This document shows positions 12,606 through 63,897 of a stretch of DNA of 64,000 bases, in pieces. This stretch comes from Caldilineae bacterium (lineage in GTDB: Bacteria > Chloroflexota > Anaerolineae > Epilineales > Epilineaceae). The DNA lies in NCBI GenBank assembly GCA_020634625.1, contig JACKBJ010000001.1:217276-281275 (forward strand). The letters are read 5' to 3'. The notes beneath the pieces were generated by a model, which made no database searches, was not told the DNA's origin, and saw nothing but the letters and a program-made list of their open reading frames with translations. The position numbers were made by a program, and so were the translations under genes. Within the stretch, counting starts at the first letter, position 1; every line of letters begins with the position of its first letter.

Positions 12606-14174
12606 TCAGGGTTGCACGCCGCGGTCCAGTCGCGGCAGCAGGATGCGGCCCGATTGCGCGGGCGGCGTCTCGCCGGGCGGCCGGGTGGTCGGGGCAGGCG
12701 GGGTCGCTTGCGGCGTGCCCGACGGCGCGCTCTCGGGTCCGAGGACCCGTAGCTCGTCCCCCAGCGCGGGGTCGCTTGCCGCAAAGTAGAGCTGCTCGGC
12801 CTGGGCCAGCAGTGCGCTTGGATCCGAACCGAGGGCTCCGGGCCGGAGGTCGGACACCACCCGGGTCTCGGCCGTCGTGCCGTCGGTCACCCAGAGCTCG
12901 CGGCCGAGCCCTTCGCGATCCGCGCTGAAGTAGAGCCGATCGCCCAAGGGGCTGGCCTCGGCCGGAAAGGAGCTGGCGACCTCGCCCGGGTTGACGTCGG
13001 CAAGCAGCCGCGTGCCGGGTTCGGTACCATCCGAGACCCAGGGCTCGATGCCGTAGCTGAAGTGAAACGCTTGAAAGAAGAGCAGGTTGCCGAAGCTGAC
13101 GAAGCCAGCCGGGACCGAGCCGCGACCACGCATGGCGCTGGCGAACACCGCGTGCGTCCCGTCCGGCTCGCCGTCGGTGACCCAGAGCTCGCCGCCACCG
13201 CCATCGTCGCCGCCGAAGTAGAGGCGGCCTGCATGCGGTGCGAACCCCTGATTGAAGCCTCGGCCGCCGGGGTTGAGATCCCGCAGCACGCGGGTTCCCG
13301 CCGCGCTTCCGTCCGAGATCCAGGGCTCCATGTTGGCGCCGCCGGGCGCATCGCTGGCCGCGAAGACCAAGCGGCCGTTGAAGCCCACGAAGCTGTCCGG
13401 CTCCGAGCCGTCCAGACCGGCCGCGATGTCGGCCAGCATCCGAGTTCCTTCCGGACTGCCGTCCGAAAGCCAGGGCTCGATGCCGGCTTCGTCGTTCTCG
13501 GCGGAGAAGGCCAGACCCAGGGGGGTCGACCTGAGGTGCGCCGGCAGCGAGCCGGCGGGCCCATCCACGATGTCGGCAAGCATGCGGGTGCCCTCGGCCG
13601 TCCCATCGCTCACCCACAGCTCCTCGCCGTTCTCCCCGTCATCGCCGGTGAAGAAGAGGCGCCCGTCATGCTCGGTGAGGAACGCTGCCAGGCCCCAGGC
13701 CTCGGGTCCCTCGGTGACGTCGGCCAGCAATCGCGTCCCGGTCGCGCTGCCGTCGCTCGTCCAGATCTCGGGACCGTGCTTGCCGTCGTCGGCCAGAAAG
13801 TAGACCCGGTCGCCCACCCGGGTGAACCGCGTGCGCGCGTCGGCCGGAACCGGGTTGGCCTCGCCCTCGCCACCTGGGCTAGGGTTGGAGCCCTGGGGGC
13901 CGGGCTGGATGTCGGCGAGCATGCGCGTGCCCGCGGCACTGCCGTCGGAGATCCATAGCTCGCGGCCATGCACGCCATCGTCGGCGCTGAAGATCACGCG
14001 GTCGTCGAAGCCCGTCATGAAGCGCGGTTCGGAGGACTCGGGACCCGGCCGCAAGTCCAAGGCGACGATCTCGGCGCCTGACTCGGCTGGCTTGCCCCGC
14101 GTCAGCGCGCCAGTCGGGCCCAGGCAACCGAGGAGCAGCCCACTCAGGATCAGGCATCCGCGCGAAACGTGCAT
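12606..14174 (-). CDS. ELWxxDG(T)-repeat beta-propeller lipoprotein
   Basis: ATG 14174 (residue M22 of the track ORF). Lipobox LLLGC. Eight repeats of the form G.ELW.SDG.. GTR.LADI. PT-rich tail ending ILLPRLDRGVQP. Confidence 0.8.
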   Translation of the reverse strand: MHVSRGCLILSGLLLGCLGPTGALTRGKPAESGAEIVALDLRPGPESSEPRFMTGFDDRVIFSADDGVHGRELWISDGSAAGTRMLADIQPGPQGSNPSPGGEGEANPVPADARTRFTRVGDRVYFLADDGKHGPEIWTSDGSATGTRLLADVTEGPEAWGLAAFLTEHDGRLFFTGDDGENGEELWVSDGTAEGTRMLADIVDGPAGSLPAHLRSTPLGLAFSAENDEAGIEPWLSDGSPEGTRMLADIAAGLDGSEPDSFVGFNGRLVFAASDAPGGANMEPWISDGSAAGTRVLRDLNPGGRGFNQGFAPHAGRLYFGGDDGGGGELWVTDGEPDGTHAVFASAMRGRGSVPAGFVSFGNLLFFQAFHFSYGIEPWVSDGTEPGTRLLADVNPGEVASSFPAEASPLGDRLYFSADREGLGRELWVTDGTTAETRVVSDLRPGALGSDPSALLAQAEQLYFAASDPALGDELRVLGPESAPSGTPQATPPAPTTRPPGETPPAQSGRILLPRLDRGVQP

Positions 14175-14233
14175 CGGGCTCCGACCTCCTGGCCGGCGCA
14201 GGCAGCGCTCGGCATCGTTCGTCTCGGTCCGCA

Positions 14234-16252: not shown

Positions 16253-16283
16253 CGCGGCCGCCCTTCGCCCCGGCGCGACCCGC

Positions 16284-18611
16284 CTAGCGCCGGCCCCAGA
16301 AGACCTCCGGCGCGCAGGGGATCAAGCGCGCGATCGCCTCGTATATGGCGGCCAGGTCGGCGCTGTTCGGCGACAGGCGCAAACGGGTCCGATCGCCGGC
16401 GAGCGCCTCGAGATAGTCGAGGTCGAGGTCCTGGCCGAGGCCGACGATGTACAGCGCGACCCCCGACTCTCGGATCGCTCGAGCCAGCGCCTGCGGCGGC
16501 TCGGGATCGCCTACCTGAATCCCGTCGGTCAACAGCACGATCATCGGCGAGTTGTCGGGCTTGCGCTCGGGTCCCTCGAGGACGCGCCGTGCCGCCGCGA
16601 GGCCGCGATCGATCCGCGTCCCGTAGGCCACGTCGATTCCGCGGATGGCCGCCTCGAGCGTCGGCCCGTCACCGCTGAGCGGGCTGATGACCTGCGCCTC
16701 CTCGCTGAAGACCACCAACCCGATCTGGTCGCTGCCCAGCTCGACGGCGCGCAGGAAAGCCAGCGCCGCCTGCCGCGCCGCGTCGATCTTCTCGCCGGCC
16801 ATGCTCGACGAGTTGTCGAAGACGAGCACGGTGTCGGCGTTGGCCCACTCGGGCGCGCAGTGCTCGCGCAGCAGGATCGGAAGATAGGCCGGACGCAAGA
16901 CCCGCGGCGTCGCCGAGGGCTGCTCGGTCGACATCGGGCTGGGTGTGCGGGTCGGCGTGCGGGTCGGCGTGTCGGTGGCCGTCGCGGTCGCGACCGGGGT
17001 GTCGGAGGCGGTCGGGGTGTTCGAGGGCAAAGGCTCGCTCGGTGTCGGCGCCTGGGGCTGGTAGATGCACAGCACCTCCGTGTCGCCCAGGCTGCCGATG
17101 TCGCTGAGGAAGTTCCAGATGTATAGCGTATCGACCCAGGGCCCGTGCGCCCAGGCCCGTAACGGGCCACCGCCCGTGACGTCGTAGGGCTCCGTGAAGC
17201 CGGGCGCGCCAACGGTCTCTTCACTGACCTGATTTCCGCCGGCCAGCTCGTACCAGTAGACCCCCTCGTAGGCCAGCGTATCCTTGGCCGCTCGCTTCAC
17301 CCCATAGCTGGTCGCGACGACTCGATCCGTGTCCGGAATCCAGGCCACGCCGCCCGTGGCCGACTCGTCGTGCGACAGGGCGTTGGTGTCGTCAAAGTGC
17401 TCAGGGCGCGGCACGAACTTGTAGGTTCCGTCGGACAGGGTCCCGTGGATGATGTCGCCGAATCCCAGACCCTCCTCCGACATCAGCGTGTCGCCGGGCT
17501 TGGTGAAGGGCGTCGGCGTCGGGGCGCCGCCGTGCGTGCTGGTCGCATAGCGCTCGTCGTCGCGGATCCACTGCAGCGAGATGTCCCAGTGCCGGTCCCG
17601 CAGGCCGACCACCATCACGCCGGTGTTGGTGATGGCCAGATCGGTCAACATCGGCTGGGGCCGATGCATCTCGGGCCGTTGCTGCGCGTTCAGCTTCCGA
17701 TCGATCTCGTCGGACCAGGGCGACCAGCTGGTCTGGCTGCCGACCACGTTGCGCAGGCGAACGCCGTCCCGGGGATACCGCATGTTGATGACCGCGACCT
17801 GCTGCATGTCGGAGCCATCGGGACGCGAGCTGTAGACGATGCTGACCATGTTGGCGGCCGAGCCGCGGCTGTTGACGACGCCGTGGTAGAGCCGTCCGGA
17901 GTACCAGGCCAAACCGAATGGCCGCCCGCCGACCGGGCCCCAGTCCTCCGACATCGCCCCCATGTCGAACTCGCTCAGGATGGCCTTGGTCGCGAGATCG
18001 AAGCGGATGATCTTGCGATTGTTGAGGTTGACGGCAAACAGCTCGGTGCCGGCGTCGTTGACCTCGAGGTCGCCCAGCGCCACCTTGCCGACCTCGCGCG
18101 CCGCGCCATCGTCCTGGTCGCGCTCGCCATCGGCCATGCGGCCGCCGATCTGCGTGCCGGCATCCGGGACCTGGGTCCAGAGCTCGGTCACGCCCGTGTC
18201 GAGGTCGGTCCGGTAGATCCCGCCCGCGCCACCCGGTCCGTAGGGCAGCCCCCGCTTGCGATAGGCCCCGGAGTAGATCGCCGGCTCGCCGCGGCTATAC
18301 GCCAGGCCGAAGACCGACCCGGTGTCGGCGAAGCTGGCGAGCTCGAACTGTGGGTTGTCGCTCGGCGTATCCCGGAAGAGGATGACCGAAGGCGCGGCCG
18401 TGTCCGGGCGACGACCGCGACCCGATTGGGCGCGAAAGGCCGAGGCGACATAGTAGGGGTCGCCGTCGACACAGGCCTGGTCGAAGTCGGGCGCGCCAGC
18501 CGTCAGGCGATCCAGGTTGACGATGCCCAGCGCGATGGCGAGCACGAAGACGAAGGTCAGGATCCGCAGCCCACGATGGGCGGCTCCGGTCGAGGGCGTG
18601 GCGACGGTCAT
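16284..18611 (-). CDS. Secreted protein: unknown ~560-aa N-terminal domain, PT linker, C-terminal vWA cassette
   Basis: ATG 18611 (M88 of the track ORF). N-terminal anchor LRILTFVFVLAIALGIV. MIDAS FDNSSSM plus LLTDG. Terminal IPCAPEVFWGRR. Confidence 0.8.
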   Translation of the reverse strand: MTVATPSTGAAHRGLRILTFVFVLAIALGIVNLDRLTAGAPDFDQACVDGDPYYVASAFRAQSGRGRRPDTAAPSVILFRDTPSDNPQFELASFADTGSVFGLAYSRGEPAIYSGAYRKRGLPYGPGGAGGIYRTDLDTGVTELWTQVPDAGTQIGGRMADGERDQDDGAAREVGKVALGDLEVNDAGTELFAVNLNNRKIIRFDLATKAILSEFDMGAMSEDWGPVGGRPFGLAWYSGRLYHGVVNSRGSAANMVSIVYSSRPDGSDMQQVAVINMRYPRDGVRLRNVVGSQTSWSPWSDEIDRKLNAQQRPEMHRPQPMLTDLAITNTGVMVVGLRDRHWDISLQWIRDDERYATSTHGGAPTPTPFTKPGDTLMSEEGLGFGDIIHGTLSDGTYKFVPRPEHFDDTNALSHDESATGGVAWIPDTDRVVATSYGVKRAAKDTLAYEGVYWYELAGGNQVSEETVGAPGFTEPYDVTGGGPLRAWAHGPWVDTLYIWNFLSDIGSLGDTEVLCIYQPQAPTPSEPLPSNTPTASDTPVATATATDTPTRTPTRTPSPMSTEQPSATPRVLRPAYLPILLREHCAPEWANADTVLVFDNSSSMAGEKIDAARQAALAFLRAVELGSDQIGLVVFSEEAQVISPLSGDGPTLEAAIRGIDVAYGTRIDRGLAAARRVLEGPERKPDNSPMIVLLTDGIQVGDPEPPQALARAIRESGVALYIVGLGQDLDLDYLEALAGDRTRLRLSPNSADLAAIYEAIARLIPCAPEVFWGRR

Positions 18612-19041
18612 GGCGTGCTCCGCTGGCGTTCGGGCCGCCACGCCGGACGAGGGCGGGACGGCGCTGCAACCCGGTTGTCGATGTGCGTGCTGCCAGAGCG
18701 GTTGCATCCGACCCGTACGTCCTCTGAAGCGGCTGGCCGTCCTGGCCTGGCCAACACGCTGCAACCGTGAGTCGCCTCCGCGGCCCGCCCCTTGAATAGC
18801 CGAGGTCTTGCGAGCGGTCAAATGCGGGGCTCCCCGGCGCCGCGATGGATGGTGCCATGCGAACGCTCGCATCGCATCGCAAGTGGCTCGGGTCTGGCCG
18901 AGATCTCACCACCTCCAGGACACGAGGGCCGAAGGGGCTGCGGCCCGACACCCCGGGATCGGAACTTTCATCCACCCTGCGGTGTATGGATGGTCGAGAC
19001 CACCATTCAGCACGCGTCTGCATGACCAGGGAGCGACCGCG

Positions 19042-20276: not shown

Positions 20277-20284
20277 CATCGCCC

Positions 20285-27637: not shown

Positions 27638-29002
27638 CTAGCGACCCCGGAGCAGCAGCGGCAGCTGCAGCAGGATGCGTTCCGGCGGCGGTCCGTAGTA
27701 CCAGACGCCGGCGTCGCTGACCAGCCAGAGCCGGCCATCGGCGCCGGCGGCCAGGTCGAGGATGCGGGCGTCGGCCGGCAGGCCGATGGTGCCGCGGTCG
27801 TGAACCGACTCCCAGCCGCCGTCCAAGCGGCGGAGCGCGACCCCGCCCTCCGTCGAGGCGCACCACAACCCGTCGGCCTCGGGTCGCCACTCGGCCGCCA
27901 CCAGCCGCACATGGGCCGGGTCGTCCGCCGTCAAGGGCCCGTCGCCCAGGTCCTCGAGCAAGGCCCAGGTGGCGGCCCGGTCGTCCCAGACTGCCGAGAC
28001 GGTGCGCCAGGTCACCCCGTCGGGCAGCTGTTCCTCGACCCAGACAAGGGCCTGGGGGGCTCCGTCCGGCCGCTGGGTGGCCGTGCTCAGAAAGCCCGCG
28101 TTGCGCAGGCCGCCCGGTTCGGCGGGCGGTCCGAGAAGGGGATAGTCCTCGGCGCCGGGGCGCTCGGAGCGGCGGTGCAGCTGGGACCGCGCCAGGGCGA
28201 CCGCCGCCGAGGCCGTTCCGCGCGCATCGGGCAGGTAGATCGCCCGCAAGCCGAGCGCTTCGGCTTCCGGAACGTCGGCCAGGGCGACCGATCGACCCGC
28301 CACCGGGCCATCCGAGTCGAAAGCCTGCAGGCCGATGTCGACGCAGGTTCCCTGCTCGGCACAGCTCCGCTCGCTGCGAAACGGCACCCAGACGGCCTCG
28401 CCGTCGGCATCGAGCCCGGAGACCTCCGACCAGGTCAGCCGAAAGCCCTGGCCGTCGCGGTCCTGCGCCAGGACGCGCCAGGCGCTCCCGTCGTAGACCC
28501 GTGGTCCCAGCCAGATCCGCCCGCCCGCATCGACGGTCCAGATCTCGGCCAGACTGCCCGCCGCTCGGATCTCTCGGGCGCCGGCGGCGATCAGGTCCTG
28601 ACTGGCCCGGCTCAGCAGCGGTCGACCGTCCGGCGAGAAGGCCTGCAACCAGTCGAGGTTTCCGGAGCGCGAGCGCAGCCAGATCCGACCGTCGGCCGCC
28701 CGAGCCGCGTAGCGGGTGCCGATCGGGCTGCTCAGCCTCCGCCACGCGTAGGATCCTTCGGTCTGTGTCGTCCGAGCTGGCCCTGCTACCGTCGCGGACT
28801 GGCCGTGACCGAACACGATCCGGCTCTCGGCGGGGCCGGGACGCTCGCGCAGGCGATGCGGCTCGTCGGGTCGCGCGAGGATCGGGCGCGGGCCACTGAC
28901 CGCGCCGATGGCGATGGCGATGGCCAGGGCCACCGCGAACGCAACCCGCTTCGGCCATCCCGAAGCGCGGCCAGCCGAAGGGACCGCGCCGGGCCGGCGC
29001 AT
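27638..29002 (-). CDS. Secreted propeller-like repeat protein, paralogue of the C-terminal half of the upstream gene
   Basis: ATG 29002 overlaps the upstream stop (ATGA). Anchor VAFAVALAIAIAIGAV. G(R)(I/L)W(L/I)G-type repeats. Ends LQLPLLLRGR. Confidence 0.7.
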   Translation of the reverse strand: MRRPGAVPSAGRASGWPKRVAFAVALAIAIAIGAVSGPRPILARPDEPHRLRERPGPAESRIVFGHGQSATVAGPARTTQTEGSYAWRRLSSPIGTRYAARAADGRIWLRSRSGNLDWLQAFSPDGRPLLSRASQDLIAAGAREIRAAGSLAEIWTVDAGGRIWLGPRVYDGSAWRVLAQDRDGQGFRLTWSEVSGLDADGEAVWVPFRSERSCAEQGTCVDIGLQAFDSDGPVAGRSVALADVPEAEALGLRAIYLPDARGTASAAVALARSQLHRRSERPGAEDYPLLGPPAEPGGLRNAGFLSTATQRPDGAPQALVWVEEQLPDGVTWRTVSAVWDDRAATWALLEDLGDGPLTADDPAHVRLVAAEWRPEADGLWCASTEGGVALRRLDGGWESVHDRGTIGLPADARILDLAAGADGRLWLVSDAGVWYYGPPPERILLQLPLLLRGR

Positions 29003-31812
29003 CACCGACGCCGCTGGACCAGGAAGGGCAGCGTGATCTCGAATCCGGGCTCGATCGCCCCGCCGACATAGCGATACAGCCCATCGACGGTCGCGATCAG
29101 CAGCTCGTTGGCCGCGGTGCAGGCCAGGGCCCCCACGGGCGCCGCCGGCAGCGGCGTCAAGCCGGGTCGCAGCCGCTCGCCGAAGGCCTGGCCATCCCAG
29201 CGCGCGACGATGCCGCGCTCGGTGCCCAGCCAGAGCCCACCGTCCGGGCACCAGGCCGCCGCGCGAATCTGATCCAGCGATGGATCGAGCGGGCTGCCGG
29301 GCAGACCGGGTCCCGCCAGAGCTTGAGGAGGCAGCCAGTCGCCGCTGGCCGGGACCCAGGTGTTCATCCGCAGCTCCGGCACCACCCGGTCGCCGGCACG
29401 CGACTGGATCTCGAGCCAGGTGAAGGCCACCGGTCGACCGAACGCGTCACGCCCCGCCGCCGTCGCATAGCCCGCGTTGCGCAGCTGGGTCGGATCGGCC
29501 GGCTGGCCGAGGCCGGGGTAGTCAATCGGCCGGGGGTCTGGCAGCGCGTAGAGGGCGTTGGCATCGATCACGAAGGCGTCCGGATTGCCCTGCGCGGGCG
29601 AATCCGGCCGCCCACCACTGGTCTCGGCGCCCGGCGTGTCCAGGACGACGCTCGGGCCGCCGCCTGGCGAGCCGAGCAGGGCCGCGTCCCGAAGCGCCCC
29701 GCGGCCCTCCGGCCTCGCCGGCGCCAGATCGATTCCCAGCCCGAGCCGGCCTCGCTCGTCGAAGGCGATCAGGCTGGTCATGGCGCAAGCGCCGGGCCGG
29801 CCGCAGTCCACCTCGGCCCGTCGCGGGACCCAGGCGCGTCCGGCGCGGTCCAGGAGGACCCGGTCCAGCAGCTGCATGCCGCCGTCCGGCGCGGCCTGGT
29901 CGCGTGCGAGCACGCGCAATCCGGTCGCCTCGAGATACCGCGCGCCGATCCAGAGCCGGCCGGCCGGATCGATCGACCAGAGCCCGGGCAAGGACCCGGC
30001 GCGGCGCGCGAGGGCGGCCGCGCGCTCGAACAGGTCGGCCAGCCCTTCGAAGGCCTGCGTGGATCCGTCCGGAGCGATCCGGACGATGCGTTCGCGGCCC
30101 GCGCGTCCCCGCAGGCGCAGCCAGATGGTGCCGTCCGTCCCCTGTCCGAGGGCCAGGACCTGCACGTCCGGACCAACACCGCGCGCGTCGAAGGGTCGCG
30201 TGAAGCCCCCGGATGGGTCGAAGATCGAGTCCGTGGCGGTCGGGCTGGGCCGCGGGGGCGGCAAGGGTTCGTCGGTCGCAGCTGGCTCGGGCGTGGCGGG
30301 CTGACGGCTGTCCGGGAGGCCCGAGAAGATCAGGGCCGCGTGGAGGACCTCGGCCAGGGCGGTCGTCGGCGCCGCTGAATAGGCGGCGATGGCCGGGCTG
30401 CCGCTCGTGCCATCGGCCAGGAAGCCGAGCGTCGCGACCGGGCCATTGGCGCGGATGCGCATCCAGCCCGTGAACCCCTCGCCGGCAGACGCGAATTGGT
30501 CATCCTCGAGATCGATCGCGACGAAGCCACGGGCCGCCACACGGGTTTGCAGGCTGGCGATCGGCTTCTCGCCACCGCCGGCGGCAAAGAGCTCGAGCGA
30601 GACGCTCGCCAGCGCTCCGCCGCCTTGGATCGTCAGCCAGCTGGCGCGACCGGGTTGGCCGCGCCAGACGATCGGCAGCACCGCGTCCTGGGCCGGCTCG
30701 ACCGCGGCATAGGCGGCGCCGGCCTTGACCTGCGGCCAGCGCAGCGCGACCAGCGCGGCTAGCGTGTCGGTCGCCCCTGCGACGCCGGCATGCGCGCCCT
30801 GACCGAGGTCGGTCAGATCGTCCAGGTCGAGGCGGACCGCGCGCCCGGCCTCCAGATCGCCCAGCGCAGCCTGGGACGCCGGCTGCCCGTCGGCATCGAA
30901 CAGGCTCAGCTGCAGCCGCTTGGCCGATGCGGCGCTGGCCTGAAGCATCAGAGCCGCCGTGCCGGGACCGATGACCCGCCGCAGCGCGACCGGCGCCGTC
31001 AGCGCCTGCTTGGGCAGCTCGGGCAGCATCGCCGCCGCTGCGCCGCCGCCAAGGCCGGCCGATCCGGGGTAGAGCAACGGGCCGTAGCCCGAGCCGTCCA
31101 GACCCGCTCGCGAGAAGGCCACCGAGAGCAGGCGGCCCTCGGACTCGATCCATGCCGAGCCCCGCTGTCCCGGGGCGAGGCCCGGCAGGGTCTCCAGGCG
31201 CCAGAGCGTGGTCTGACCCGGCGAGAGCCTGCGGCTGCAGGCCTCGCCACAGCCGCGCAGCTCCTGGCCCTGCTCGTCGAACAGGCGCAGCTGGAGCCGG
31301 GCCGGCGCGTCGCCGAGAAGGCGCGCCAGGATGCGGCTCGCGTCGGCGTCGCTTCGCGGCAGGGTCCAGGCCGGCAAGAGGCTCGACGCGGAGGCCGCGG
31401 CCTCGGGCTGCGCCAGCAGCGTCGCCGGGTGCCCCGAGCCGTCCCAGTCGCTCAGCGCGAGCGCCGCCACCGGTCCACCGCTGGCCTGCACCGTCGCCGA
31501 TAGCGCGCAGTCCGAGGGTAGCCCGGAGCTGCCACCAGGTCCGGTGTCGAAAAATCCGATGGCGCCGGGCTCGAGCACTCGGCCGTCACGCCAGGCCGGG
31601 ATCCGCGGATCGCATGCGCCAACGACCGGCGAGAAGCTCACGGCGACGTCCACCGGCGCCGCGTTCGGGTTGGTCACGACCAAGAACGCTTGCGGCGCGG
31701 TCTGGTCGGGCCCGGCGCTCGGCGCGCGCAGTCCGCCCTGGCGCATCAGGGCGGCCAGGACCAGCACAGCGATCAGCGCCAACGCGGCAAGCAGCGATCT
31801 CGAGCCGGACAT
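29002..31812 (-). CDS. Secreted protein: four ~100-aa beta-sandwich-like repeats, P-rich linker, propeller-like C-terminal half
   Basis: ATG 31812, 6 nt after an AGGAGG; ATG 31818 lies too close to that element. Signal LLAALALIAVLVLAAL. Ends ITLPFLVQRRR. Confidence 0.7.
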   Translation of the reverse strand: MSGSRSLLAALALIAVLVLAALMRQGGLRAPSAGPDQTAPQAFLVVTNPNAAPVDVAVSFSPVVGACDPRIPAWRDGRVLEPGAIGFFDTGPGGSSGLPSDCALSATVQASGGPVAALALSDWDGSGHPATLLAQPEAAASASSLLPAWTLPRSDADASRILARLLGDAPARLQLRLFDEQGQELRGCGEACSRRLSPGQTTLWRLETLPGLAPGQRGSAWIESEGRLLSVAFSRAGLDGSGYGPLLYPGSAGLGGGAAAAMLPELPKQALTAPVALRRVIGPGTAALMLQASAASAKRLQLSLFDADGQPASQAALGDLEAGRAVRLDLDDLTDLGQGAHAGVAGATDTLAALVALRWPQVKAGAAYAAVEPAQDAVLPIVWRGQPGRASWLTIQGGGALASVSLELFAAGGGEKPIASLQTRVAARGFVAIDLEDDQFASAGEGFTGWMRIRANGPVATLGFLADGTSGSPAIAAYSAAPTTALAEVLHAALIFSGLPDSRQPATPEPAATDEPLPPPRPSPTATDSIFDPSGGFTRPFDARGVGPDVQVLALGQGTDGTIWLRLRGRAGRERIVRIAPDGSTQAFEGLADLFERAAALARRAGSLPGLWSIDPAGRLWIGARYLEATGLRVLARDQAAPDGGMQLLDRVLLDRAGRAWVPRRAEVDCGRPGACAMTSLIAFDERGRLGLGIDLAPARPEGRGALRDAALLGSPGGGPSVVLDTPGAETSGGRPDSPAQGNPDAFVIDANALYALPDPRPIDYPGLGQPADPTQLRNAGYATAAGRDAFGRPVAFTWLEIQSRAGDRVVPELRMNTWVPASGDWLPPQALAGPGLPGSPLDPSLDQIRAAAWCPDGGLWLGTERGIVARWDGQAFGERLRPGLTPLPAAPVGALACTAANELLIATVDGLYRYVGGAIEPGFEITLPFLVQRRR

Positions 31813-42437: not shown

Positions 42438-44318
42438 ATGCGCCCGTGGAAGCGCGCCGCGATCGTCGCGATCGGTCTTTTCATGGCGGCTGCCGTTGGC
42501 CTCGGCGCGCTTCCGCGGCACGAAGCCGTCCGGGCGCAAGGCCAGCCGGGGGAGCCACCGAGCGCCTGCGGGGTTCGGATCACCGAGACCGCCCAGTCCC
42601 CCGCGTGGATCTGCGCGCCGCTGGGCGTGACCGTCACGCTGCAGGTCACGCGTCCCCAGGCGCTGCCCCTGCACGTCGTCTTCGTCGTGGCGAAACACCT
42701 GTTGATGTACGATCACCTGGACGAGGCCAAGGCGGCCGCCCGAGACGCGGCCAATGCGCTGAGCTTTGGTCCTGGCACCCGCGTCGGTCTGGTGACGCTC
42801 AGCGTTCAGGGCAGGACCGAGCTCGAGCTGAGCGACGACAAGAGCAAGGTGCTGTCGGCCATCAACCGCATCAAGCTCGACCAGGTTCGGCCCGAAGCCC
42901 GCTACTATGACTGGCTCGGCGACGCCGAGGACCTGCTGGCCGAAGCGCGGACGACGGCCCTGTCCCCGGTGGAGGTCATCGTCCTGATCTCGACCGGCTG
43001 CCCGAATGGGTACGAGAGCTACTGTCAGCGGCAGAAGGCGAGCGCCAGCCGGGTTCAGGGCAAGGGCATCACGGTCGTCGGCATCTGCAATCCCAACGCC
43101 ACCATCCCGCCGCCGGCCCTGCCGGCGGGCCACTGCAACGACATCCGCGGCCTGGCGAGCAGCGGCAGCTACTACGACCTGCGCCAGGCAGCCCGGGCGG
43201 CGGCCCGGCTTCAGGAGCTGGAGCGCGAGGGCGCGGCCATCGAGCCCCGCGCGCTCGCGCTGACCGAGCTCCTCGCGCCCGGCTTCGCCTACGTCCCCGG
43301 ATCCGGAAGGCCCGAGCCCAAGGTGAACCCTTCGCGGCTGCTGTTCGAATGGTCGGGCCTGTCGGCCGATCAGGTGGTGAGCGCGACCTATCGGCTGCAG
43401 CCGGACGCCGAGGGCCTTCGATCCCTGCGCCTGTCGGGCTCGAGCGCCATCGTCCTCGACAGCCTGCAGCGCGCTTCCGCCTCCGTCCGCGTGCCGACCC
43501 GCACCCTCGACATCCGTCCTTGCCTCGTCGCCAGCGCGACGCCCACGACGCCTCCGACCCCCACGCCAGCGCCCAGCCCGACGACCCGCATGTCGCCGAC
43601 CGCGAGCCCGACGGCGCGCCCGTCGGCGCGCCCGACGCCGAGCCCCGAGCCTCAGGCCAGCCCGACGCCGGAGCCCCGCGCGCTCTACCTGCCCATCCTG
43701 ACGCGTCGGCTGTGCAAGCCCGCACGGGCTCACTCGGACATCGTGCTGCTGATCGACACAAGCTCCAGCATGGCCCAGCCGGCCGGCAGCTTCGGGAGCC
43801 GGCTGGATGCCGCACGCGACGCGGCGCGACGCTTCATCGACTTGCTCGCGCTGGATGGGGCCGGGGACCAGGTCGCGCTGGGCGGCTTCAACGCCGAACC
43901 CACCCTCGGCCCGCTCAGCGATCGCCGGGACGCGGCGCTCCGCAGCCTCGATTCCGAGATCCGTCTCGGTTCGGGCACGCGCATCGACCGGGCGCTGGAG
44001 GCCGCGCGGTCCGAGCTGTCGAGCGCGCGCGCACGCGCGGGCAGCGCTCCGGTGATCGTCCTGCTCACCGATGGACAGCCGGAAGGTGGCAGCGAGTCGG
44101 CCACGCTCGCTTCGGCGCGCGAAGCTCGACGGGCGGGCATCGACATCTTCGCCGTCGGCTTCGGCGACGCGGTCAACGGCGACTTCCTCCGACAGCTGGC
44201 CTCGCGGCCCGACGCCTATCTGCACGCGCCCGACGCCGAGGCGCTGCGCGGAGTCTACGAGTCGATCGCCGGCCAGCTGCCCTGCCCGGGCGGCCTCGTA
44301 TGGGAGCTGGGGCGATGA
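42438..44318 (+). CDS. Secreted double-vWA protein (MIDAS-less N-terminal vWA + beta-sandwich + PT linker + terminal vWA cassette)
   Basis: ATG 42438. Anchor AAIVAIGLFMAAAVGLGAL. First vWA has VVFVVAKHLLM instead of DxSxS. Second has IDTSSSM and LLTDG. Ends [13 protein letters not shown]. Confidence 0.8.
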   Translation: MRPWKRAAIVAIGLFMAAAVGLGALPRHEAVRAQGQPGEPPSACGVRITETAQSPAWICAPLGVTVTLQVTRPQALPLHVVFVVAKHLLMYDHLDEAKAAARDAANALSFGPGTRVGLVTLSVQGRTELELSDDKSKVLSAINRIKLDQVRPEARYYDWLGDAEDLLAEARTTALSPVEVIVLISTGCPNGYESYCQRQKASASRVQGKGITVVGICNPNATIPPPALPAGHCNDIRGLASSGSYYDLRQAARAAARLQELEREGAAIEPRALALTELLAPGFAYVPGSGRPEPKVNPSRLLFEWSGLSADQVVSATYRLQPDAEGLRSLRLSGSSAIVLDSLQRASASVRVPTRTLDIRPCLVASATPTTPPTPTPAPSPTTRMSPTASPTARPSARPTPSPEPQASPTPEPRALYLPILTRRLCKPARAHSDIVLLIDTSSSMAQPAGSFGSRLDAARDAARRFIDLLALDGAGDQVALGGFNAEPTLGPLSDRRDAALRSLDSEIRLGSGTRIDRALEAARSELSSARARAGSAPVIVLLTDGQPEGGSESATLASAREARRAGIDIFAVGFGDAVNGDFLRQLASRPDAYLHAPDAEALRGVYESIAGQLPCPGGLVWELGR

Positions 44319-51495: not shown

Positions 51496-52161
51496 TCAAG
51501 GGATGGCGGCGGGCGTGCTCGCGGCGGGATCGTAGCCGGCGTGCAGGACCAGCCGCTTGTCGTAGCTGCCGGCCCTCTTGTCCCAGACGCCGTCGCAGGT
51601 GATCAGGCTCAGGCCGGGCACCGCCGAGGGACCGAAGACGTCCTCCCAGACGGCCGCGTCCACCGCGTCGGCATCGAGCAGGCGGCTGTCCTCGACCCGA
51701 AAGGCATAGCGTTCCCCGCCCGGGTAATCCACGTAGACCGGGTCGCCCGGCGCCAGCTCCCGGAGACGGTAGAAGACGGCTGCCGCGCCCCGGTCATCGT
51801 CGAAGTGGCCCGAGATGATGGCGTTGCCCGGCTCGCCCGGACGGAAGCCGGCATCGTACCAACCGGCGTTTCCCCAGGCATTCGGCACGTCGATCGCCTG
51901 ATCCGGCGTCAGACCAAGCCGCTCGAGCGGGGCGTCGATGTCGACGGCCGGAATCGCGATTCGGGCCGGAGCGCCAAGCCCTGCCCAGGGATCCGGCGTC
52001 GCCGTCGGCGCGCTCGTCGCGCTGACCGGAGCTTCGTCCACGGTCGAGGCCGGGTCCACGCGATCGGCTCGGCAGGCGGCGATCGAGGCGCCGGCCGCCA
52101 GGGCCGTCAAGGCTGCGATCGCGGCCAACGCGCCTGGCGCCCAGCCAGGTCTCGAGGTCAT
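51496..52161 (-). CDS. Class F sortase
   Basis: N-terminal anchor. IAIPAVDIDAPL, AGWY..PGEPGNAIISGHFD (His), LSLITCDG (Cys) and YDKRLVLHA (Arg). Confidence 0.8.
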   Translation of the reverse strand: MTSRPGWAPGALAAIAALTALAAGASIAACRADRVDPASTVDEAPVSATSAPTATPDPWAGLGAPARIAIPAVDIDAPLERLGLTPDQAIDVPNAWGNAGWYDAGFRPGEPGNAIISGHFDDDRGAAAVFYRLRELAPGDPVYVDYPGGERYAFRVEDSRLLDADAVDAAVWEDVFGPSAVPGLSLITCDGVWDKRAGSYDKRLVLHAGYDPAASTPAAIP

Positions 52162-53968: not shown

Positions 53969-56088
53969 GCGCGGGCCTTCGAGTCCGGCGCCGGCTAGGC
54001 CGTCTGGGCCTGGTGCCCATCCTGATCGCTGGCGCCCTGGGGTTGAGCAACGGGCTCGGAGCGACGCCGAGCCTGAGGGCCGAGGCCGGGCGTCTGGATC
54101 CCGTCAGCCAGCTGGGCGGACCCACCAACGCGGTCGACTGGCAGGATGGCCGCGTCTACACCAGCGTCGGGCCGCGGGTGCTCATGCTCGACGGATGCGA
54201 TCCGGCCTGGCCGATCGAGCTCGCGCAGAGCCGCCCCTTGGGCGGCGTCGTGCAGCATCTCGCAGTGCGCGACGGTCTGGTCTACGTTGCGGCGGGCCGG
54301 GGCGGCCTGGTGGTGTTGGACGCGCGCGCCGATCTGCGCCAGATCGGCCAGCTGGCCCTCGAGGGCGTGGCGGCCAAGGTGGTGCTCCAGGATCGTTACG
54401 CCTACGTCGCGGCCGGAGCGGCCGGCATGTCGGTGATCGACGTCCAGGATCCGGCAGGGCCACGGCTGATCGGGCGCTTCGTCGATGCGCGCGGCGACGC
54501 CGTGATCGCGACCGATCTCGCCATCGCCGGCAGCTTCGCCTATGTCGTCTCGCGCAACCTCATGCAGGTCGACCTTCGCGACCCGGCCAAGCCCGAGCTC
54601 GCGCGCAAGATCGAGGACTGGGCCGACGCCGTCGCCACCGAGGGCGACCGGCTCTACGTCGCCACCTCCGAGCAACGCGCGGGCGGCGAGCGCTTCGGCC
54701 ACCTCCGGGTCTACGACCTGAGCGTGGACCAGCGTCCGCCGCGGCTGTTGGCGAGCGTCGAGGTGGGCGACCGCGCACGCCGACTGGCCGTCGCCGACGG
54801 CCTGGCCTTCCACCAAGGCACCTCGCGCGTGATCGCCTGGCGCTTCAGCGAGCCTCGAGGGCTCGAGCGCCTGGGTGCCGTGGCCAGCCCGGACAGCGTG
54901 CTGAACCTGGATCCGGGCGATCGCTGGCTTTGGCTGGCGGCGGGTCCTTCCGGCCTGCGCGCGGCCCGATTCTATCCCTGGGACCGCATCGAAGGCCAGG
55001 CGCTGCGCGAGGTGTGGACCAGCCTGCCGGCCCCGGAGCGGGTGATCGTCGACGACCGCGATCCCGCTCGCATCTACGTGGCCGACGCGGGGGTCGAAGG
55101 GGGCTGGGGCCCCCCACCGCGGATCCTCGTCCTCACGATTCCAGCCCCGACCGAGGGCTCCGCACCGGGCTCCTCTGGCCCGCCGGACGCACCCCGGATC
55201 CTGGGGAGCATCCCGGCCGAGCTGGACAAGGGCGGGTTCGCCGTCCATCGAGGCTTCCTGTTCCTCGGCGCGCCCGGTGAGATCCTTCGGGTGATCGACG
55301 TGCGGGAGCCCGCCTCGGCCCGCGAAGTGGCCAGGCTGGCCATGCCCCCGGACCCGGTCTCGGGGCGCCGGGCACCGGTCTGGCGCATCGCGATCGAGGA
55401 CGATCTGGCCTACCTGGCCAACGACGAGTGGGTGCGCGTCCTGGATGTCTCCGACCCGACGGCACCGCGCCAGGTCTCGGCGTGGCGCTCGAGCGGGGGC
55501 GCGACCGATCTGGCGGTTCGCGATCGACGCGCCTATGTCCTGGGGCCGGCCACGGGCATCCGCACCAATCAGCCCAGCCTTCAGATCGTCGACTTCTTCG
55601 AGCTGGGTTCGCCGCTGGCCTTCGCCAGCCTGGGCACGATCGGCTTTCGAGCCGGGATCCAGGCGGAGCCTGGCCAGGTCTTCATCGACGGACTCCAGGT
55701 CGTCGACGTCAGCGATCCGGACGCGCCGGTCGAGACGGCGCTGGTCCAGCTCGATGGGCGCACCCGCGACATCGATCAGGCGGGAGGCTTCGTCTACCTG
55801 GCCCGAGCGAAGCCCGACGGCACCGGCGAAGTGCGCGCATTCGACCTGCGCATGCCGGGTCGCCCCATCGAAACGGCCCGGCTGGACCTGGTCGACGAGG
55901 CGCGTGACGTCGCCTTGGGGGCGGACCTGGCCTTTGTGGCGGCGCAAGGCTCGGGCCTGGTGATCGCCGCTTCGGGTCTCGACCCGGCGCCGACCCTGCC
56001 GATCCCGACGCCGACCGTTCGGACGCCCCTTCCCCAGCGCGCGTTCCTGCCGATCGTCGCGCGCGGCGGCCTAGGCCGCTGCCCCTAG
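53965..56088 (+). CDS. LVIVD-repeat beta-propeller protein, secreted
   Basis: ATG 53965 overlaps the M28 stop (ATGA). Signal LGLVPILIAGALGLS. GLVVLDARADL, GMSVIDVQDPAGP, VRVLDVSDPTAP and LQVVDVSDPDAP repeats. PT linker. Ends AFLPIVARGGLGRCP. Confidence 0.8.
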   Translation: MSAGLRVRRRLGRLGLVPILIAGALGLSNGLGATPSLRAEAGRLDPVSQLGGPTNAVDWQDGRVYTSVGPRVLMLDGCDPAWPIELAQSRPLGGVVQHLAVRDGLVYVAAGRGGLVVLDARADLRQIGQLALEGVAAKVVLQDRYAYVAAGAAGMSVIDVQDPAGPRLIGRFVDARGDAVIATDLAIAGSFAYVVSRNLMQVDLRDPAKPELARKIEDWADAVATEGDRLYVATSEQRAGGERFGHLRVYDLSVDQRPPRLLASVEVGDRARRLAVADGLAFHQGTSRVIAWRFSEPRGLERLGAVASPDSVLNLDPGDRWLWLAAGPSGLRAARFYPWDRIEGQALREVWTSLPAPERVIVDDRDPARIYVADAGVEGGWGPPPRILVLTIPAPTEGSAPGSSGPPDAPRILGSIPAELDKGGFAVHRGFLFLGAPGEILRVIDVREPASAREVARLAMPPDPVSGRRAPVWRIAIEDDLAYLANDEWVRVLDVSDPTAPRQVSAWRSSGGATDLAVRDRRAYVLGPATGIRTNQPSLQIVDFFELGSPLAFASLGTIGFRAGIQAEPGQVFIDGLQVVDVSDPDAPVETALVQLDGRTRDIDQAGGFVYLARAKPDGTGEVRAFDLRMPGRPIETARLDLVDEARDVALGADLAFVAAQGSGLVIAASGLDPAPTLPIPTPTVRTPLPQRAFLPIVARGGLGRCP

Positions 56089-56795: not shown

Positions 56796-56821
56796 CCTGA
56801 CGCGACCCGGAACGATCGGAA

Positions 56822-56854: not shown

Positions 56855-56958
56855 TTTGGCGTAGGGGGCCAAGCTCGCACTCGGAGGTCTGGGTTCCGAG
56901 CCGCGCAACACGAGCGCGCGCACCGAAGCGGCGCTTGGCGCAGCCGACCGTGCCGGCG

Positions 56959-59054: not shown

Positions 59055-59104
59055 GCTAGCGAGGCCGCACCGACGCGGCCCGCGCCGTGCCTCCGAACCC
59101 GCAG

Positions 59105-59620: not shown

Positions 59621-59648
59621 GAAATGCTCCTGGTGCTTGCGCTGGAAT

Positions 59649-60305: not shown

Positions 60306-60399
60306 GGGGTCGTGTCCTGTCTCGGGGAGCGGCCGGGGCCGCAGGGGCTGCACCAGCTAAGTCGTCGCTCTCCCCCGCGTCGGGGCGAGGACGCGCGAT

Positions 60400-60428
60400 A
60401 GTATAACCCGGTTGTCGGGAACGCTCAA
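60400..60428 (-). promoter_or_regulatory. Putative sigma70-like promoter TTGAGC-17 nt-TATACT for the BON-fldA-kinase-regulator unit
   Basis: Minus-strand hexamers at 60428..60423 and 60405..60400, read directly. About 90 nt upstream of ATG 60305. Confidence 0.4.
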
Positions 60429-60513
60429 GCCCACCGGTCACCACCTTCGACCTTGCCCGGCAGCCGCCGCCATGGGCTGCCACAACGCCGACAGCGGTCG
60501 GCCGGGGTGACGG

Positions 60514-63500
60514 CTAGCGACGGCCCCAGAACAGCCCGGCGTCGCAGGGAATCTCGGCGGCGATGCTCTCGTAGATGCGGCGCAGGTCGCCCACCTGGGG
60601 TGCCAGGAAGGCCATCGCTGGCCGGCAGGCCAGACGCCGCAACAGCTGGAAATCGACGGCCTCGGCGTCACCGAGGCCGATCGCGTACACCTGGACCCCG
60701 GCCTCGCACATCCGCCCACCCAGGTCCAGGATGGCCGACTGGCCATCCGGCTGCTGACCATCCGTGAGCAGGATCAGCGCGGGCGTGGCATCCGGCCGCC
60801 GTCGTGAGGAGCGCAGCTCGTCGTAGGCCGCTGCCAGTCCTTGATCGATGGCGGTGCCCTGTCGGGTGCCCAGGGCGTCGATGGCCGCACGGAGTGCCGT
60901 CAGGTCGGAGCCAAGCGGGCTGGCCAGTCGCGCCTCGTGGTCGAAGGCCACCAGGGCGACCCGATCGCGAGCCGGCTGCATGAGGTCGACGAAGGCCTTG
61001 GCGGCTTCCTTGGCCGCCGTCAGCTTGGCGCCGCGCATGCTGCTCGAGACATCCAGAACGAGCACGGCATCGGTCGATCGCTGCTCGGGCACGCAGATCT
61101 CGTGCAGGAGCAGCGGCAGGTACAGTGCCGCCGGCTCGGGTGTCGGCGTAGCGGTCGGGCTCGGGCTGGGCGTCGGCGTCGGCGCGATCACCTGGACGCG
61201 AGGCACGGGGAAGGTGATCCGATCGGGCTGGCCGAAGCCATCGATCAGGTCGGCGACCGCCTGGACGTTGGTCGGCCAGTCCCCGGTCGCCTGCGGCTCG
61301 ACCGAGAAGCGCAGGTCGAAGCCGGCGAAGGGTACGTCGGCCAGCTGCCACTCCAAGATCCGGCTGCTGGGATCCCAGCTGGCCGCTGGCACGGCGCTGC
61401 CGGGCACGAAGCGCATGTTGGCGGGAATCTCGTCTCTTACGATCGCGCGCTCGAAGAGCCGCGTCGCCGCAACGCGGCGTGCGATGGCATCCAGAACGTC
61501 GAAGAGGAAGGTCGGCTCCTCCGAGACATAGCTGTGGTCGGGCGAGCTGGCGATGGCTTCGATCAGGGCGCGATCCTCGGCCAGCGTGCTGGTGCCGACC
61601 GTGAACAGCTCGACGCCGGCCTGCTTGATCCGATCGGCGGCGGCCAGAGCCGGCGCCGCCTCCGAGCGTCCGTCCGAAAGCAGGATGAAGATCGTCCCGA
61701 CGCCGGGTCGGCGGCTGGCCTGCCAGGTGTCGAAAGCGAGCTCGAGACCGAGGTCGATGCGGGAGGCGCCAAAGGGACGCAGGCCGCGCAGCGAACGCCA
61801 GAGGTCGGACTCGTCGTCGGTCAGCGGGCTGACCAGCTGGGCGGACTGGCTGAAGGACACCAGCCCGACGCGCGAGCGGTTCAGATCCAGGGCCCGGGTG
61901 AAGTCGAGCGCCGCCTGCTGCACCAGCCGGATCCGCTCGCCGGCCATCGAGCCGCTGGCGTCGAGCACCAGCATGACGTCGAGCGCCGGCAGCCGACGCT
62001 GGGCGCACTCGCCCTCGGCCAGAAGTCGGATCTCGACCGGCTGGCCGAGGACGACCGTCTCGGGCAGCGCGAGCTTGTCGTGCGAGTAGACGCACTCCTG
62101 ACCCAGGTCCGGGCGCTCGGGCTGCGCCGTCGGGTCCCAGGCCCAGCGGCTGACGCTGCCGGCCGCTCGGTCGATCACCAACACACTGTCGTCGGACAAG
62201 ACCGCCAGATCGATCGGGCGCGAGCTGGGATCGAGGTCGCGGCGTGAGGCATCGAAGACCCCACGCAGGCTGCCGGTTGCCGCGAAGTGCCAGATCCGAC
62301 CGGAGGCGTCCAGCAGAAGCGGCTCGCCGTCCGGCCGAAGGCCGAGGCGCTGCGCCGCCCGCCCGAGCGCGAGCGTGCGGGTGACGGTGCCGGATTCGGC
62401 ATCGACGATCGTCACCTCACCGCTGCGCCGATCGAGCACCCATGCAAAGCCCGAGGCGTCGACGGCCAGGTCGGACCAGTGGCTGGGCGCATCCGCCGGC
62501 GAGAGCTGGACCGGCGCCGACTCGGCCCCGCTCGCGCTATCGAAGCGCCGCAGCTGGCGACGCCCGATGTCGAGCCCCAGGACCGTTCCGGACGGCGTCA
62601 GCGCGAGGTTGGACAGGAACCCGGCCGCACCGCTCGGCCAACGTGCCCGCTCGGTCAGGTGCAGGCCCGTTCCGGGTGCTGCGAACCGCGCCAGCGACGC
62701 GCCATCGGTACCGTAGATTCGGCCATCCGCCGCGGCGCCGACATCGATCAGGTCGCCGTCCAACCACTGCCCGATCGGCGTTCCGTCCGATCGCAGACGC
62801 TGAACCCTCAGCGTCCGATCGAGCACCAGCAGCGCATCGTCGAGCCCCATCGTGATTCGGTCGGGGCCCCGGTTTAGACCGAGCGGGTGCGGGAGCGCGC
62901 CGACTCGCTCCGGCGTCGCCGTGCGAGCGGTGCGGCTGTCGAAGACGAGGAGCTCGCTCAACGCGGCGCTGAATCCGGTCCAGGCCGCAAAGAGCCGGTC
63001 GCCCGGTCCCAGCGCCACCGCCGAAAGCGTGCCCACCGCGTTCAGCGCGCCGAGGCTCGTGCGCTCCTCGCTGTACATCAGGCCCTGGTTGGTCGCCAAC
63101 CAGAAGGCGCGCAACGAAGGTCGGTTCGGCACGGCCATCACGGCGACATCCAAGAGGCGGGCGCTGCCGGCGAAGCCTTCATGAACGCTGGCGAGCTTGC
63201 CGATAGCGTTGAGCTTCAATAGGCGCGCGGCCCGCGTATCGATCACGTAGACGTTGCCGTCCGCGTCGATGTCCATGCCGCCCAGGAGCGAAGCGCCCGG
63301 CTGGGGGTCGAGCACCTGCCAGGTCTCCAGCACGCCGCCGTCGGCGTCGAAGCGATGGATCTGTCCGCTGGACGCGGAGCTGACGTGCACCGTGCCGTTG
63401 GCTGACACGGCCACGCCCTGTGCGCCGTCGATGCCGATCTGGCTGCGCAACCAGACGCCGGCCATGGTATAGACCAGGAGCGCGTCTCGCGCGCCGTCGA

Positions 63501-63897
63501 CCACGTAGATCCGGTCTCGGCCCGCGTCCGCCGCCAGGTGCTGGGGTGAGCACAGGGCATCGATCGGCGCGCGCGCTGGCTCGCACATCGCCAGACCCTC
63601 GATCAGCACCGAGACGCTGCCGTCGGGGGCGACCCGCGTGATTCGCGGCAGGCTCGGATCGGCATCGGCGATCAGGAGCCCACCGTCCGGCAGGGTCTCG
63701 AGACCCGCCATCCGCGCCCAGGCGTCGGAGGGTCGCCGATCCTCGGGCATGGGCCAGGTCTCGGCCAGGGCATAGGCGCCTTGGCCTTGATCCGGGCTGG
63801 CTTCGACGTGGCTTCCGGCGATCAGGGTCAGCAAGAGAAGCGGCACGAAGGCAAATGCCCGGCGCCTACCGCCTCCGAAACGTCCCAGGTCGCGCAT
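60514..63897 (-). CDS. Secreted NHL-repeat propeller protein with internal vWA + beta-sandwich and terminal vWA cassette
   Basis: ATG 63897 with GGGAGAG 5 nt upstream. Signal FAFVPLLLLTLIAGSHVEA. NHL-like repeats (DRIYVVDGARDALLVY, GNVYVIDTRAARLLKL). MIDAS LDASGSM and LDVSSSM. Ends IPCDAGLFWGRR. Confidence 0.85.
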   Translation of the reverse strand: MRDLGRFGGGRRRAFAFVPLLLLTLIAGSHVEASPDQGQGAYALAETWPMPEDRRPSDAWARMAGLETLPDGGLLIADADPSLPRITRVAPDGSVSVLIEGLAMCEPARAPIDALCSPQHLAADAGRDRIYVVDGARDALLVYTMAGVWLRSQIGIDGAQGVAVSANGTVHVSSASSGQIHRFDADGGVLETWQVLDPQPGASLLGGMDIDADGNVYVIDTRAARLLKLNAIGKLASVHEGFAGSARLLDVAVMAVPNRPSLRAFWLATNQGLMYSEERTSLGALNAVGTLSAVALGPGDRLFAAWTGFSAALSELLVFDSRTARTATPERVGALPHPLGLNRGPDRITMGLDDALLVLDRTLRVQRLRSDGTPIGQWLDGDLIDVGAAADGRIYGTDGASLARFAAPGTGLHLTERARWPSGAAGFLSNLALTPSGTVLGLDIGRRQLRRFDSASGAESAPVQLSPADAPSHWSDLAVDASGFAWVLDRRSGEVTIVDAESGTVTRTLALGRAAQRLGLRPDGEPLLLDASGRIWHFAATGSLRGVFDASRRDLDPSSRPIDLAVLSDDSVLVIDRAAGSVSRWAWDPTAQPERPDLGQECVYSHDKLALPETVVLGQPVEIRLLAEGECAQRRLPALDVMLVLDASGSMAGERIRLVQQAALDFTRALDLNRSRVGLVSFSQSAQLVSPLTDDESDLWRSLRGLRPFGASRIDLGLELAFDTWQASRRPGVGTIFILLSDGRSEAAPALAAADRIKQAGVELFTVGTSTLAEDRALIEAIASSPDHSYVSEEPTFLFDVLDAIARRVAATRLFERAIVRDEIPANMRFVPGSAVPAASWDPSSRILEWQLADVPFAGFDLRFSVEPQATGDWPTNVQAVADLIDGFGQPDRITFPVPRVQVIAPTPTPSPSPTATPTPEPAALYLPLLLHEICVPEQRSTDAVLVLDVSSSMRGAKLTAAKEAAKAFVDLMQPARDRVALVAFDHEARLASPLGSDLTALRAAIDALGTRQGTAIDQGLAAAYDELRSSRRRPDATPALILLTDGQQPDGQSAILDLGGRMCEAGVQVYAIGLGDAEAVDFQLLRRLACRPAMAFLAPQVGDLRRIYESIAAEIPCDAGLFWGRR

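Follow-up and report, generated by a model that had tools for sequence, protein, structure and literature searches.

The closest described relative of the element treated here is the YLP-box, for which NCBIfam holds two models, sort_motif_YLP (NF050076.1) and ultrashort_CTERM (NF053834.1), which share the description 'YLP-box putative sorting motif-containing protein'. The consensus of the box is P-x-[YF]-L-P-[LIM]-[VLI]-x-[RK] plus 0-4 residues, and it usually follows a Pro/Thr-rich disordered linker in proteins that bear a Sec-type signal, anchor or lipobox at the N-terminus. In this study, we analyzed a stretch of 64,000 nucleotides (hereafter the window) from the metagenome-assembled genome (MAG) of an uncultured Caldilineae bacterium of the phylum Chloroflexota (assembly GCA_020634625.1, contig JACKBJ010000001.1, positions 217,276 to 281,275), in which nine large exported proteins carry peptides of this kind. 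The nine peptides are the YLP-box, an already curated motif, and their detection is a rediscovery that adds no new kind of signal. They are likely to be copies of a putative ultrashort sorting signal that would be read after export by some envelope factor.

Several other systems occupy the same place on exported proteins. Like the YLP-box, the LPXTG signals of sortases (classes A-F) stand at the C-termini of surface proteins that Sec exports, in many cases behind a linker rich in Pro and Thr, and the dipeptide L-P occurs in both; the YLP-box replaces the LPATG, LPPTG or PPVTG of homologous proteins, and a class F sortase gene is present in the window. In contrast to LPXTG signals, the box lacks a scissile Thr-Gly pair, a transmembrane (TM) helix and a basic tail of several residues, and it comprises 7-11 residues instead of about 35. 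The PEP-CTERM signals of exosortases and the MYXO-CTERM signals of myxosortases consist of a signature, a hydrophobic stretch and one or more basic residues and stand at the same position on choice-of-anchor families, whereas the hydrophobic stretch of the YLP-box (3-4 residues) is too short for a membrane and the box also occurs away from the C-terminus. Within the 64 kb, to which the search was confined, no candidate exosortase, rhombosortase or CPBP-type protein was identified. The C-terminal domains of the T9SS (Por_Secre_tail) are an alternative ending of homologous ELWxxDGT proteins, but they are folded domains of about 80-100 residues from diderm Bacteroidota, whereas the YLP-box of Chloroflexota is short and linear. 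As in the YLP-box curated by NCBIfam, the core of the window peptides is x-P-x-Y-L-P-L-V-L-R at the very end of exported proteins; the window set differs in that it includes variant copies and that three copies are internal, before vWA cassettes.

The two YLP-box models were matched only with short tag fragments at E-values of up to 10. In this way hmmscan reported VYLPMLRRGE, the end of gene 35005, with 14.9 bits for NF053834.1 (above the cut-off of 10) and 14.1 bits for NF050076.1 (just below the cut-off of 15), and a canonical tag from an Anaerolineae MAG, PIYLPLVLRNR, reached 16.0 bits for NF050076.1 (cut-off 15) and 13.0 bits for NF053834.1. The tag fragments matched no Pfam model, and whole-protein scans of the carriers with Pfam and NCBIfam placed no model over the tag. 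The core of [YF]-L-P, 3-4 hydrophobic residues and R or K was found near the C-terminus, and the proteins bearing it are exported, judging their N-termini by eye. An earlier examination of this DNA without database searches (the sequence-only reading) had described the shared tag as a candidate undescribed signal that belongs to no named CTERM domain. This was wrong, as NF050076.1 and NF053834.1 describe exactly this motif; the same reading had named a match to a curated sorting domain as grounds for abandoning its claim, and because such a match exists the claim of novelty fails.

What the sequence-only reading had observed in the window fared better. Genes were predicted with a self-trained codon log-odds score, which gave about 45 genes in agreement with the NCBI gene calls (L001, right-hand third); GC3 and frame plots by themselves did not resolve the genes of the window at 71% G+C. 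Carrier families were assigned from Pfam and NCBIfam scans, and N-terminal signals, anchors and lipoboxes were called by eye, without a predictor. All nine peptides were translated from predicted reading frames at the positions at which that reading had placed them. Pro/Thr/Ser-rich linkers were seen upstream of six of the nine tags, where at least six had been reported, and an N-terminal signal, anchor or lipobox was visible in nine of nine carriers. Five tags lie 2-7 residues before the stop codon (genes 12606, 27638, 29002, 35005 and 53965), and three are immediately N-terminal to a C-terminal vWA domain (genes 16284, 42438 and 60514). The core opens with Y-L-P in four copies, with F-L-P or H-L-P in two and with Q-L-P, T-L-P or L-L-P in three, so that several copies are variants with F, H, Q, T or L for Y; H or Q for R also occurs. 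The remark that this is not a classical tripartite signal holds as well: there are only 3-5 hydrophobic residues, 0-7 residues follow L-P in the terminal copies, and a search of the window proteins for C-termini composed of a motif, a TM segment and basic residues found none.

A strict regular expression, [YFH]LP[ILMF][LV].[RH], matched six times in the 45 predicted proteins (19,373 residues) against an expectation of 0.03, and all six matches were in the claimed carriers. Because this expression had been derived post hoc from the same data, an independent matrix was built, namely a nine-column fixed-width log-odds matrix of 37 YLP-box instances, all from other genomes or metagenomes and none from the window; a home-made nine-column HMM, run with a local hmmsearch, gave fragmented alignments, and the matrix was used instead. 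Seven of the nine tags took ranks 1-7 among 19,013 nine-residue windows, with 8.9-25.2 bits against 6.9 bits for the best background score, and the remaining two, ILLPRLDRG (3.4 bits) and ITLPFLVQRRR, were not distinguishable from background by score. The motif codons vary at synonymous sites among the nine copies; the conservation is therefore at the protein level, and a DNA repeat as the source of the nine tags is excluded. An artefact of chance or composition, in a genome of 71% G+C with many Leu, Pro and Arg codons, could point to the loose regular expression, which also matches one cytoplasmic protein (FLPRLAK, internal, in an acyl-CoA dehydrogenase) and one non-coding frame. Set against the excess of strict matches, the matrix ranks, the synonymous codon differences and the retention of the motif in other classes of Chloroflexota, this explanation deserves practically no credence, and we count it as already refuted. 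No other predicted protein of the window has such a C-terminus, the sole cytoplasmic match being internal; the sequence-only reading had stated this for the approximately 30 cytoplasmic proteins. The observation of nine tags is thus confirmed as real, non-random and far beyond chance. A six-frame match, YLPILRR at 44860-44880 on the minus strand, was considered as an unannotated antisense carrier and was dismissed as a chance match, its open frame having only 42 codons.

Among the five terminal tags, VYLPMLRRGE-stop (35008..35037, minus strand; 9.3 bits with the matrix) ends a choice-of-anchor-Q/beta-helix exoprotein (gene 35005-38403), the choice_anch_Q domain of which stops 10 residues upstream of the tag. 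A variant, AFLPIVARGGLGRCP-stop (56041..56085, plus strand; 11.4 bits), ends an LVIVD-repeat exoprotein (gene 53965-56088). The degenerate copy ILLPRLDRGVQP-stop (12609..12644, minus strand; 3.4 bits) follows a Pro/Thr linker and ends an ELWxxDGT-repeat lipoprotein (gene 12606-14237), the repeats of which match TIGR04534 (E 1.9e-126). Another variant, LQLPLLLRGR-stop (27641..27670, minus strand; 12.2 bits, rank 4), ends gene 27638-28933 of unknown family, and the degenerate ITLPFLVQRRR-stop (29005..29037, minus strand) ends the tandem paralog of this gene, 29002-31782. The two paralogs align by BLASTP (E 2e-26, 32% identity over about 390 residues), and the alignment reaches both C-termini, with LLQLPLLLRGR over EITLPFLVQRR. 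Likewise, a 58%-identical ortholog of the ELWxxDGT carrier (P0364) has a Pro/Thr linker and then AIYLPMLLDRYPDPAG at its end (AIYLPMLLDR...). On the evidence of this ortholog and of the tandem paralog, the two low-scoring copies, ILLPRLDRGVQP and ITLPFLVQRRR, are read as diverged YLP-boxes, a reading that homology supports. The adjacent genes 27638-28933 and 29002-31782, both on the minus strand, show weak similarity to 'two-component regulator propeller' repeats and received no family-level Pfam or NCBIfam assignment. Gene 29002-31782 also holds a further internal box-like peptide, AVLPIVWRGQ, at about residue 366 (4.2 bits, within background), which may be a chance match or a decayed junction.

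The remaining four copies are followed by further sequence. IHLPILARGQ (42039..42068, plus strand; 8.9 bits), a variant downstream of a Pro/Thr/Ser linker in a NosD/beta-helix exoprotein (gene 40386-42170), has a tail of 33-35 residues. In gene 16284-18611, (A)YLPILLR(EHC) (16866..16886, minus strand; 25.2 bits, rank 1) stands between a Pro/Thr linker and a vWA cassette (16284-16865, minus strand). (L)YLPILTR(RLC) (43686..43706, plus strand; 15.8 bits) precedes the C-terminal vWA cassette (43707-44318, plus strand) of gene 42438-44318 (Pfam VWA, E 9.8e-30), and (L)YLPLLLH(EIC) (61102..61122, minus strand; 21.2 bits) precedes the second, C-terminal vWA cassette (60514-61101, minus strand) of gene 60514-63930 (Pfam VWA, E 1.9e-47, two stretches). 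The order of Pro/Thr linker, [YF]LP[LI]x[LT][RT]E.C, vWA domain and IPCP..[YF]WG[RG]R-stop is kept as a module in homologs that come from metagenomes or from MAGs with the names Limnocylindrales and Anaerolineae. One Cys lies 3-4 residues past the box and a second in the terminal IPCP motif (homologs P0003-P0033, L002, L024 and L038), and the two probably form a disulfide bracketing the vWA domain. The sequence [YF]WG[RG]R-stop, with which nearly all cassettes end, is itself a short conserved C-terminal motif.

The place of the internal box relative to the vWA domain was modelled with AlphaFold for the cassette of gene 16284 (model m8e4c8e2cccbf, 36-sequence alignment, mean pLDDT 88.9). Residues 1-40, which comprise the linker and YLPILLR, were predicted as coil with pLDDT 58-71, and the vWA fold was predicted from residue 45 with pLDDT >90, about 10 residues after the box. 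A role of the box as a structural part of the vWA fold was rejected on this ground. Since the model gives coil outside the fold, the YLP-box is predicted to be a linear motif in a disordered linker, outside any folded domain, and not a domain strand.

For the role of the box, the families in which it alternates with other endings are informative. For the 231 C-terminal residues of gene 35005 (choice-of-anchor-Q), the endings of 93 homologs were examined. At least 13 of the 93 carry a YLP-box right after the DIGAYE end of choice_anch_Q (for example FLPLILR-stop, YLPLILRDT-stop and YLPIILKNQ-stop), and YLPLALKGQSS-stop was seen by eye after DIGAYE in a Dehalococcoidia MAG. Other homologs end with VPEP, a hydrophobic helix and RR (PEP-CTERM-like) or with LPPTG or PPVTG, a helix and a basic tail (LPXTG-like); 22 of the 93 stop within 14 residues with nothing recognisable, and others carry further domains. 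Homologs of the ELWxxDGT carrier end with LPATG, a TM helix and RRR, with Cys-rich MYXO-CTERM-like tails, with T9SS-type tails or with a YLP-box; the top matches of this search were mostly giant multi-repeat proteins, and only P0364, P0350 and P0463 were informative on the tag. In these two carrier families the YLP-box thus appears interchangeable with PEP-CTERM-like and LPXTG-like signals, and this analogy supports a sorting or retention role, because the box fills the slot of established signals on the same domain families. The sequence-only reading had stated that the carrier families elsewhere bear PEP-CTERM, LPXTG or similar signals, which was borne out for choice-of-anchor-Q and ELWxxDGT, the families covered by the comparison. 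Its proposal of a C-terminal sorting or processing signal is the hypothesis of the NCBI curators too and agrees with the choice-of-anchor comparison, but a strictly C-terminal view proved incomplete.

A scan of other genomes, as proposed in the sequence-only reading, was performed with a DNA pattern for P-x-Y-L-P-[LIM]-[LV]-L-R in one genome per species (185,579 species) and gave at least 119 loci; the counts below refer to the matches listed. Of these loci, 101 represent chance matches or unrelated conserved proteins (TatD, HemF, RecF, ABC permease), and at least 18 loci (20 matches) belong to Chloroflexota, from Anaerolineae, Caldilineae, Chloroflexia, Roseiflexaceae, Thermoflexia, Limnocylindria and Ca. 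Epilinea. Considering open reading frames (ORFs) with at least 100 open codons upstream, the match was terminal (at most 4 residues after R) in 6 of 16 cases in Chloroflexota and in none of the 18 from other phyla (Fisher p = 0.006), so that, among the matches listed, terminal copies were confined to Chloroflexota. In the loci of other phyla, about 504,000 residues of long ORFs contained no match of the loose regular expression within 8 residues of a stop. From these results, which cover the matches listed, we infer a lineage restriction of the YLP-box to Chloroflexota. Tags that had not been seeded by the pattern were present in the same loci (for example MYVYLPLVLRND-stop and FPAYLPLINR-stop).

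Seven more Chloroflexota matches precede a vWA cassette (two in L002, two in L024 and one in L038) or an LTD domain (L110 and L111). In an Anaerolineae MAG (L110, ORF from 3744, plus strand) and a Thermoflexia MAG (L111, ORF from 2, minus strand), a proline run and an LTD-like (lamin-tail) sequence, SEVF/YINP...EWIELYN, come after PLYLPLVLR[ND]Y; because of these two loci, vWA is not the sole type of cassette behind the box. In a Chloroflexales MAG (L072, ORF from 5635, minus strand), the signal peptide of a small protein is immediately followed by the box (ASADQVAAVSNPIYLPLVLRIVP...) and then by a malectin-like domain, which means that the YLP-box is not confined to C-terminal regions.

Conservation between orthologs was assessed with a contig (L121) that is syntenic with 40.4-56.8 kb of the window and encodes a 75%-identical sortase and three orthologous carriers. 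The tag region of the LVIVD protein, LPQRAFLPIVARGGLGRCP, is identical in L121, and the linker just upstream differs. The box before the vWA cassette reads SSVFLPILMRQLC in the L121 ortholog of gene 42438 versus RALYLPILTRRLC in the window, and the box of the NosD-type protein reads THRIHLPLLTRGQ versus THRIHLPILARGQ in this pair of orthologs, with THRIHLPLLTRGQANLG plus the tail kept in L121. In these alignments, the boxes are conserved, and the linkers upstream of them diverge. The tail of the NosD-type carrier (40386-42170) is similar to that of its ortholog over the first 10 residues or so (RGQADLGRAGV versus RGQANLGGANI), and no domain could be recognised in it, whereas the vWA and LTD cases have one.

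These comparisons bear on the idea that the box is the N-terminal boundary of mobile C-terminal cassettes (vWA, LTD) and that the terminal copies are functionless relics left after cassette loss. The same box does introduce vWA cassettes across many lineages as well as the LTD domains of L110 and L111, and the terminal tags resemble internal ones truncated 2-3 residues after R (RNF-stop, RAY-stop and RNR-stop compared with RNY and RDY). However, the box is outside the vWA fold in the AlphaFold model, terminal tags occur on many unrelated families and are identical between orthologs while the adjoining linker changes, and in the choice-of-anchor-Q family terminal copies outnumber internal ones. 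The L121 comparison also indicates, qualitatively, that terminal boxes are under purifying selection like internal ones. We therefore regard the relic explanation as very unlikely.

Chloroflexota are regarded as monoderm. Under the reading that we prefer, that of a putative sorting signal, the carrier proteins would be exported by Sec, and the box would be a tripartite signal in miniature, made up of the YLP signature, 3-4 hydrophobic residues and a single basic residue, which cannot span the membrane. Some envelope factor would then read the box as a linear peptide and would either retain the protein at the surface of the monoderm filament or process it there. Because the box also precedes cassettes and follows a signal peptide, peptide recognition, by docking or junction cleavage, is more likely than recognition of a free C-terminus or membrane insertion. 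Several points weigh against this reading. No processing enzyme or receptor for the YLP-box was identified; our search of the literature found no experiment or paper on the YLP-box, and 'putative' is the curators' own word. The equivalence with PEP-CTERM and LPXTG signals is one of position, an analogy rather than a matter of function, and internal copies before folded cassettes suit a strictly C-terminal signal poorly. The taxon sample rests on the at least 119 loci listed, and hmmscan reports one of the nine window tags, with formal model membership of the other eight unproven. As hmmscan also misses the undisputed canonical tags PLYLPIVLRAP-stop and PTYLPLLLR-stop (in fragments of 27-34 residues), the eight unreported tags are read as a filter or sensitivity limit of models of 10-11 positions rather than as a sign that they fall outside the family.

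Instead of serving in retention, the box might be a site of proteolytic maturation or release, or a motif that a tail-specific protease recognises; an envelope protease would then trim the exoprotein at this point or split off accessory vWA and LTD cassettes. Its constant position at a linker-domain junction or protein end, disordered and accessible, agrees with this, as do the internal copies before separable cassettes and the secreted M28 and M23 peptidases encoded nearby. Yet a cut 0-4 residues from the natural C-terminus removes almost nothing, while terminal tags are the majority and are conserved, and no protease is specifically linked to the box. A protease site appears rather doubtful.

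A class F sortase gene of the window (51496..52161, minus strand), which the sequence-only reading had not mentioned, brings in another possibility. Its product matches PF04203 and NF033748 (class_F_sortase, 124.6 bits, below the cut-off of 166), is named 'class F sortase' by NCBI, has a lipoprotein-like N-terminus, and has His119 and Cys189 (TLITC) invariant in the homolog alignment. The gene is divergent to an operon of an M28 peptidase (52394-53968) and the LVIVD carrier (53965-56088), an arrangement that L121 keeps. The YLP-box could be a non-canonical substrate signal of this enzyme, with cleavage at or after the box and transfer to the cell wall, the downstream vWA or LTD cassette or the tail of 0-4 residues being the leaving group. 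The adjacency of a sortase gene with invariant His and Cys to a carrier operon, kept around the 75%-identical ortholog, would fit, as would the L-P dipeptide of the box and the LPXTG-like signals borne at the same position by carrier homologs of other lineages. The window and about 230 kb of Chloroflexota loci yielded no canonical LPXTG plus TM substrate, but 230 kb is far too little to claim absence. In class F, the one sortase that has been characterised acts on LPXTG (PMC8225981). Moreover, the box is without the Thr-Gly, TM segment and basic tail that a classical sortase needs to keep its substrate membrane-bound; among homologs with a name, class F sortases of Streptomyces and Micrococcus are the closest, and non-Chloroflexota loci among the matches listed have no terminal YLP tags; and the conserved neighbourhood in L121 is whole-region synteny with no specific linkage. 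The neighbourhood of a more distant sortase homolog (P0170) contained no YLP-box proteins and was uninformative. Nothing was found that ties the class F sortase to the YLP-box, and owing to the chemistry of the box, the use of LPXTG by class F, the phyla of the homologs and the whole-region synteny, we rate the link low and consider it clearly unlikely. Also in this part of the window, a 345-residue protein (49543-50580, plus strand) encoded between a VanW/PG_binding_4 protein and PPK2 shows a weak match to HprK-related kinase A (TIGR04352, E 2.7e-7) and a faint one to Pfam ScmC.

In a broader form of the sorting reading, the YLP-box would be no C-terminal anchor but a peptide for docking or cleavage in the Chloroflexota envelope that works irrespective of its position and has an extracytoplasmic enzyme devoted to it, possibly the phylum's divergent class F sortases. 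We think this rather unlikely to be right. If it were true, each vWA or LTD cassette that follows an internal box would serve as a leaving group or pro-domain, and a new TM-less sorting pathway would handle about one fifth of the genes in the window.

What is new here is context only, namely the internal and N-terminal placement of the box, the Cys-bracketed vWA module, the disorder, the conservation between orthologs and the neighbouring sortase. A practical gap also became apparent. The models of 10-11 positions go unreported in whole-protein scans, and the NCBI names of carriers give no hint (those of carriers 40386, 42438 and 53965 do not mention the box); since the models are invisible to whole-protein hmmscan and the names are silent, the motif is probably widely under-annotated. 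The envelope biology of Chloroflexota is poorly known, and nine of about 45 genes in the window encode large exported carriers of the box, which for this reason probably marks a major route by which filamentous Chloroflexota handle their surface proteins.

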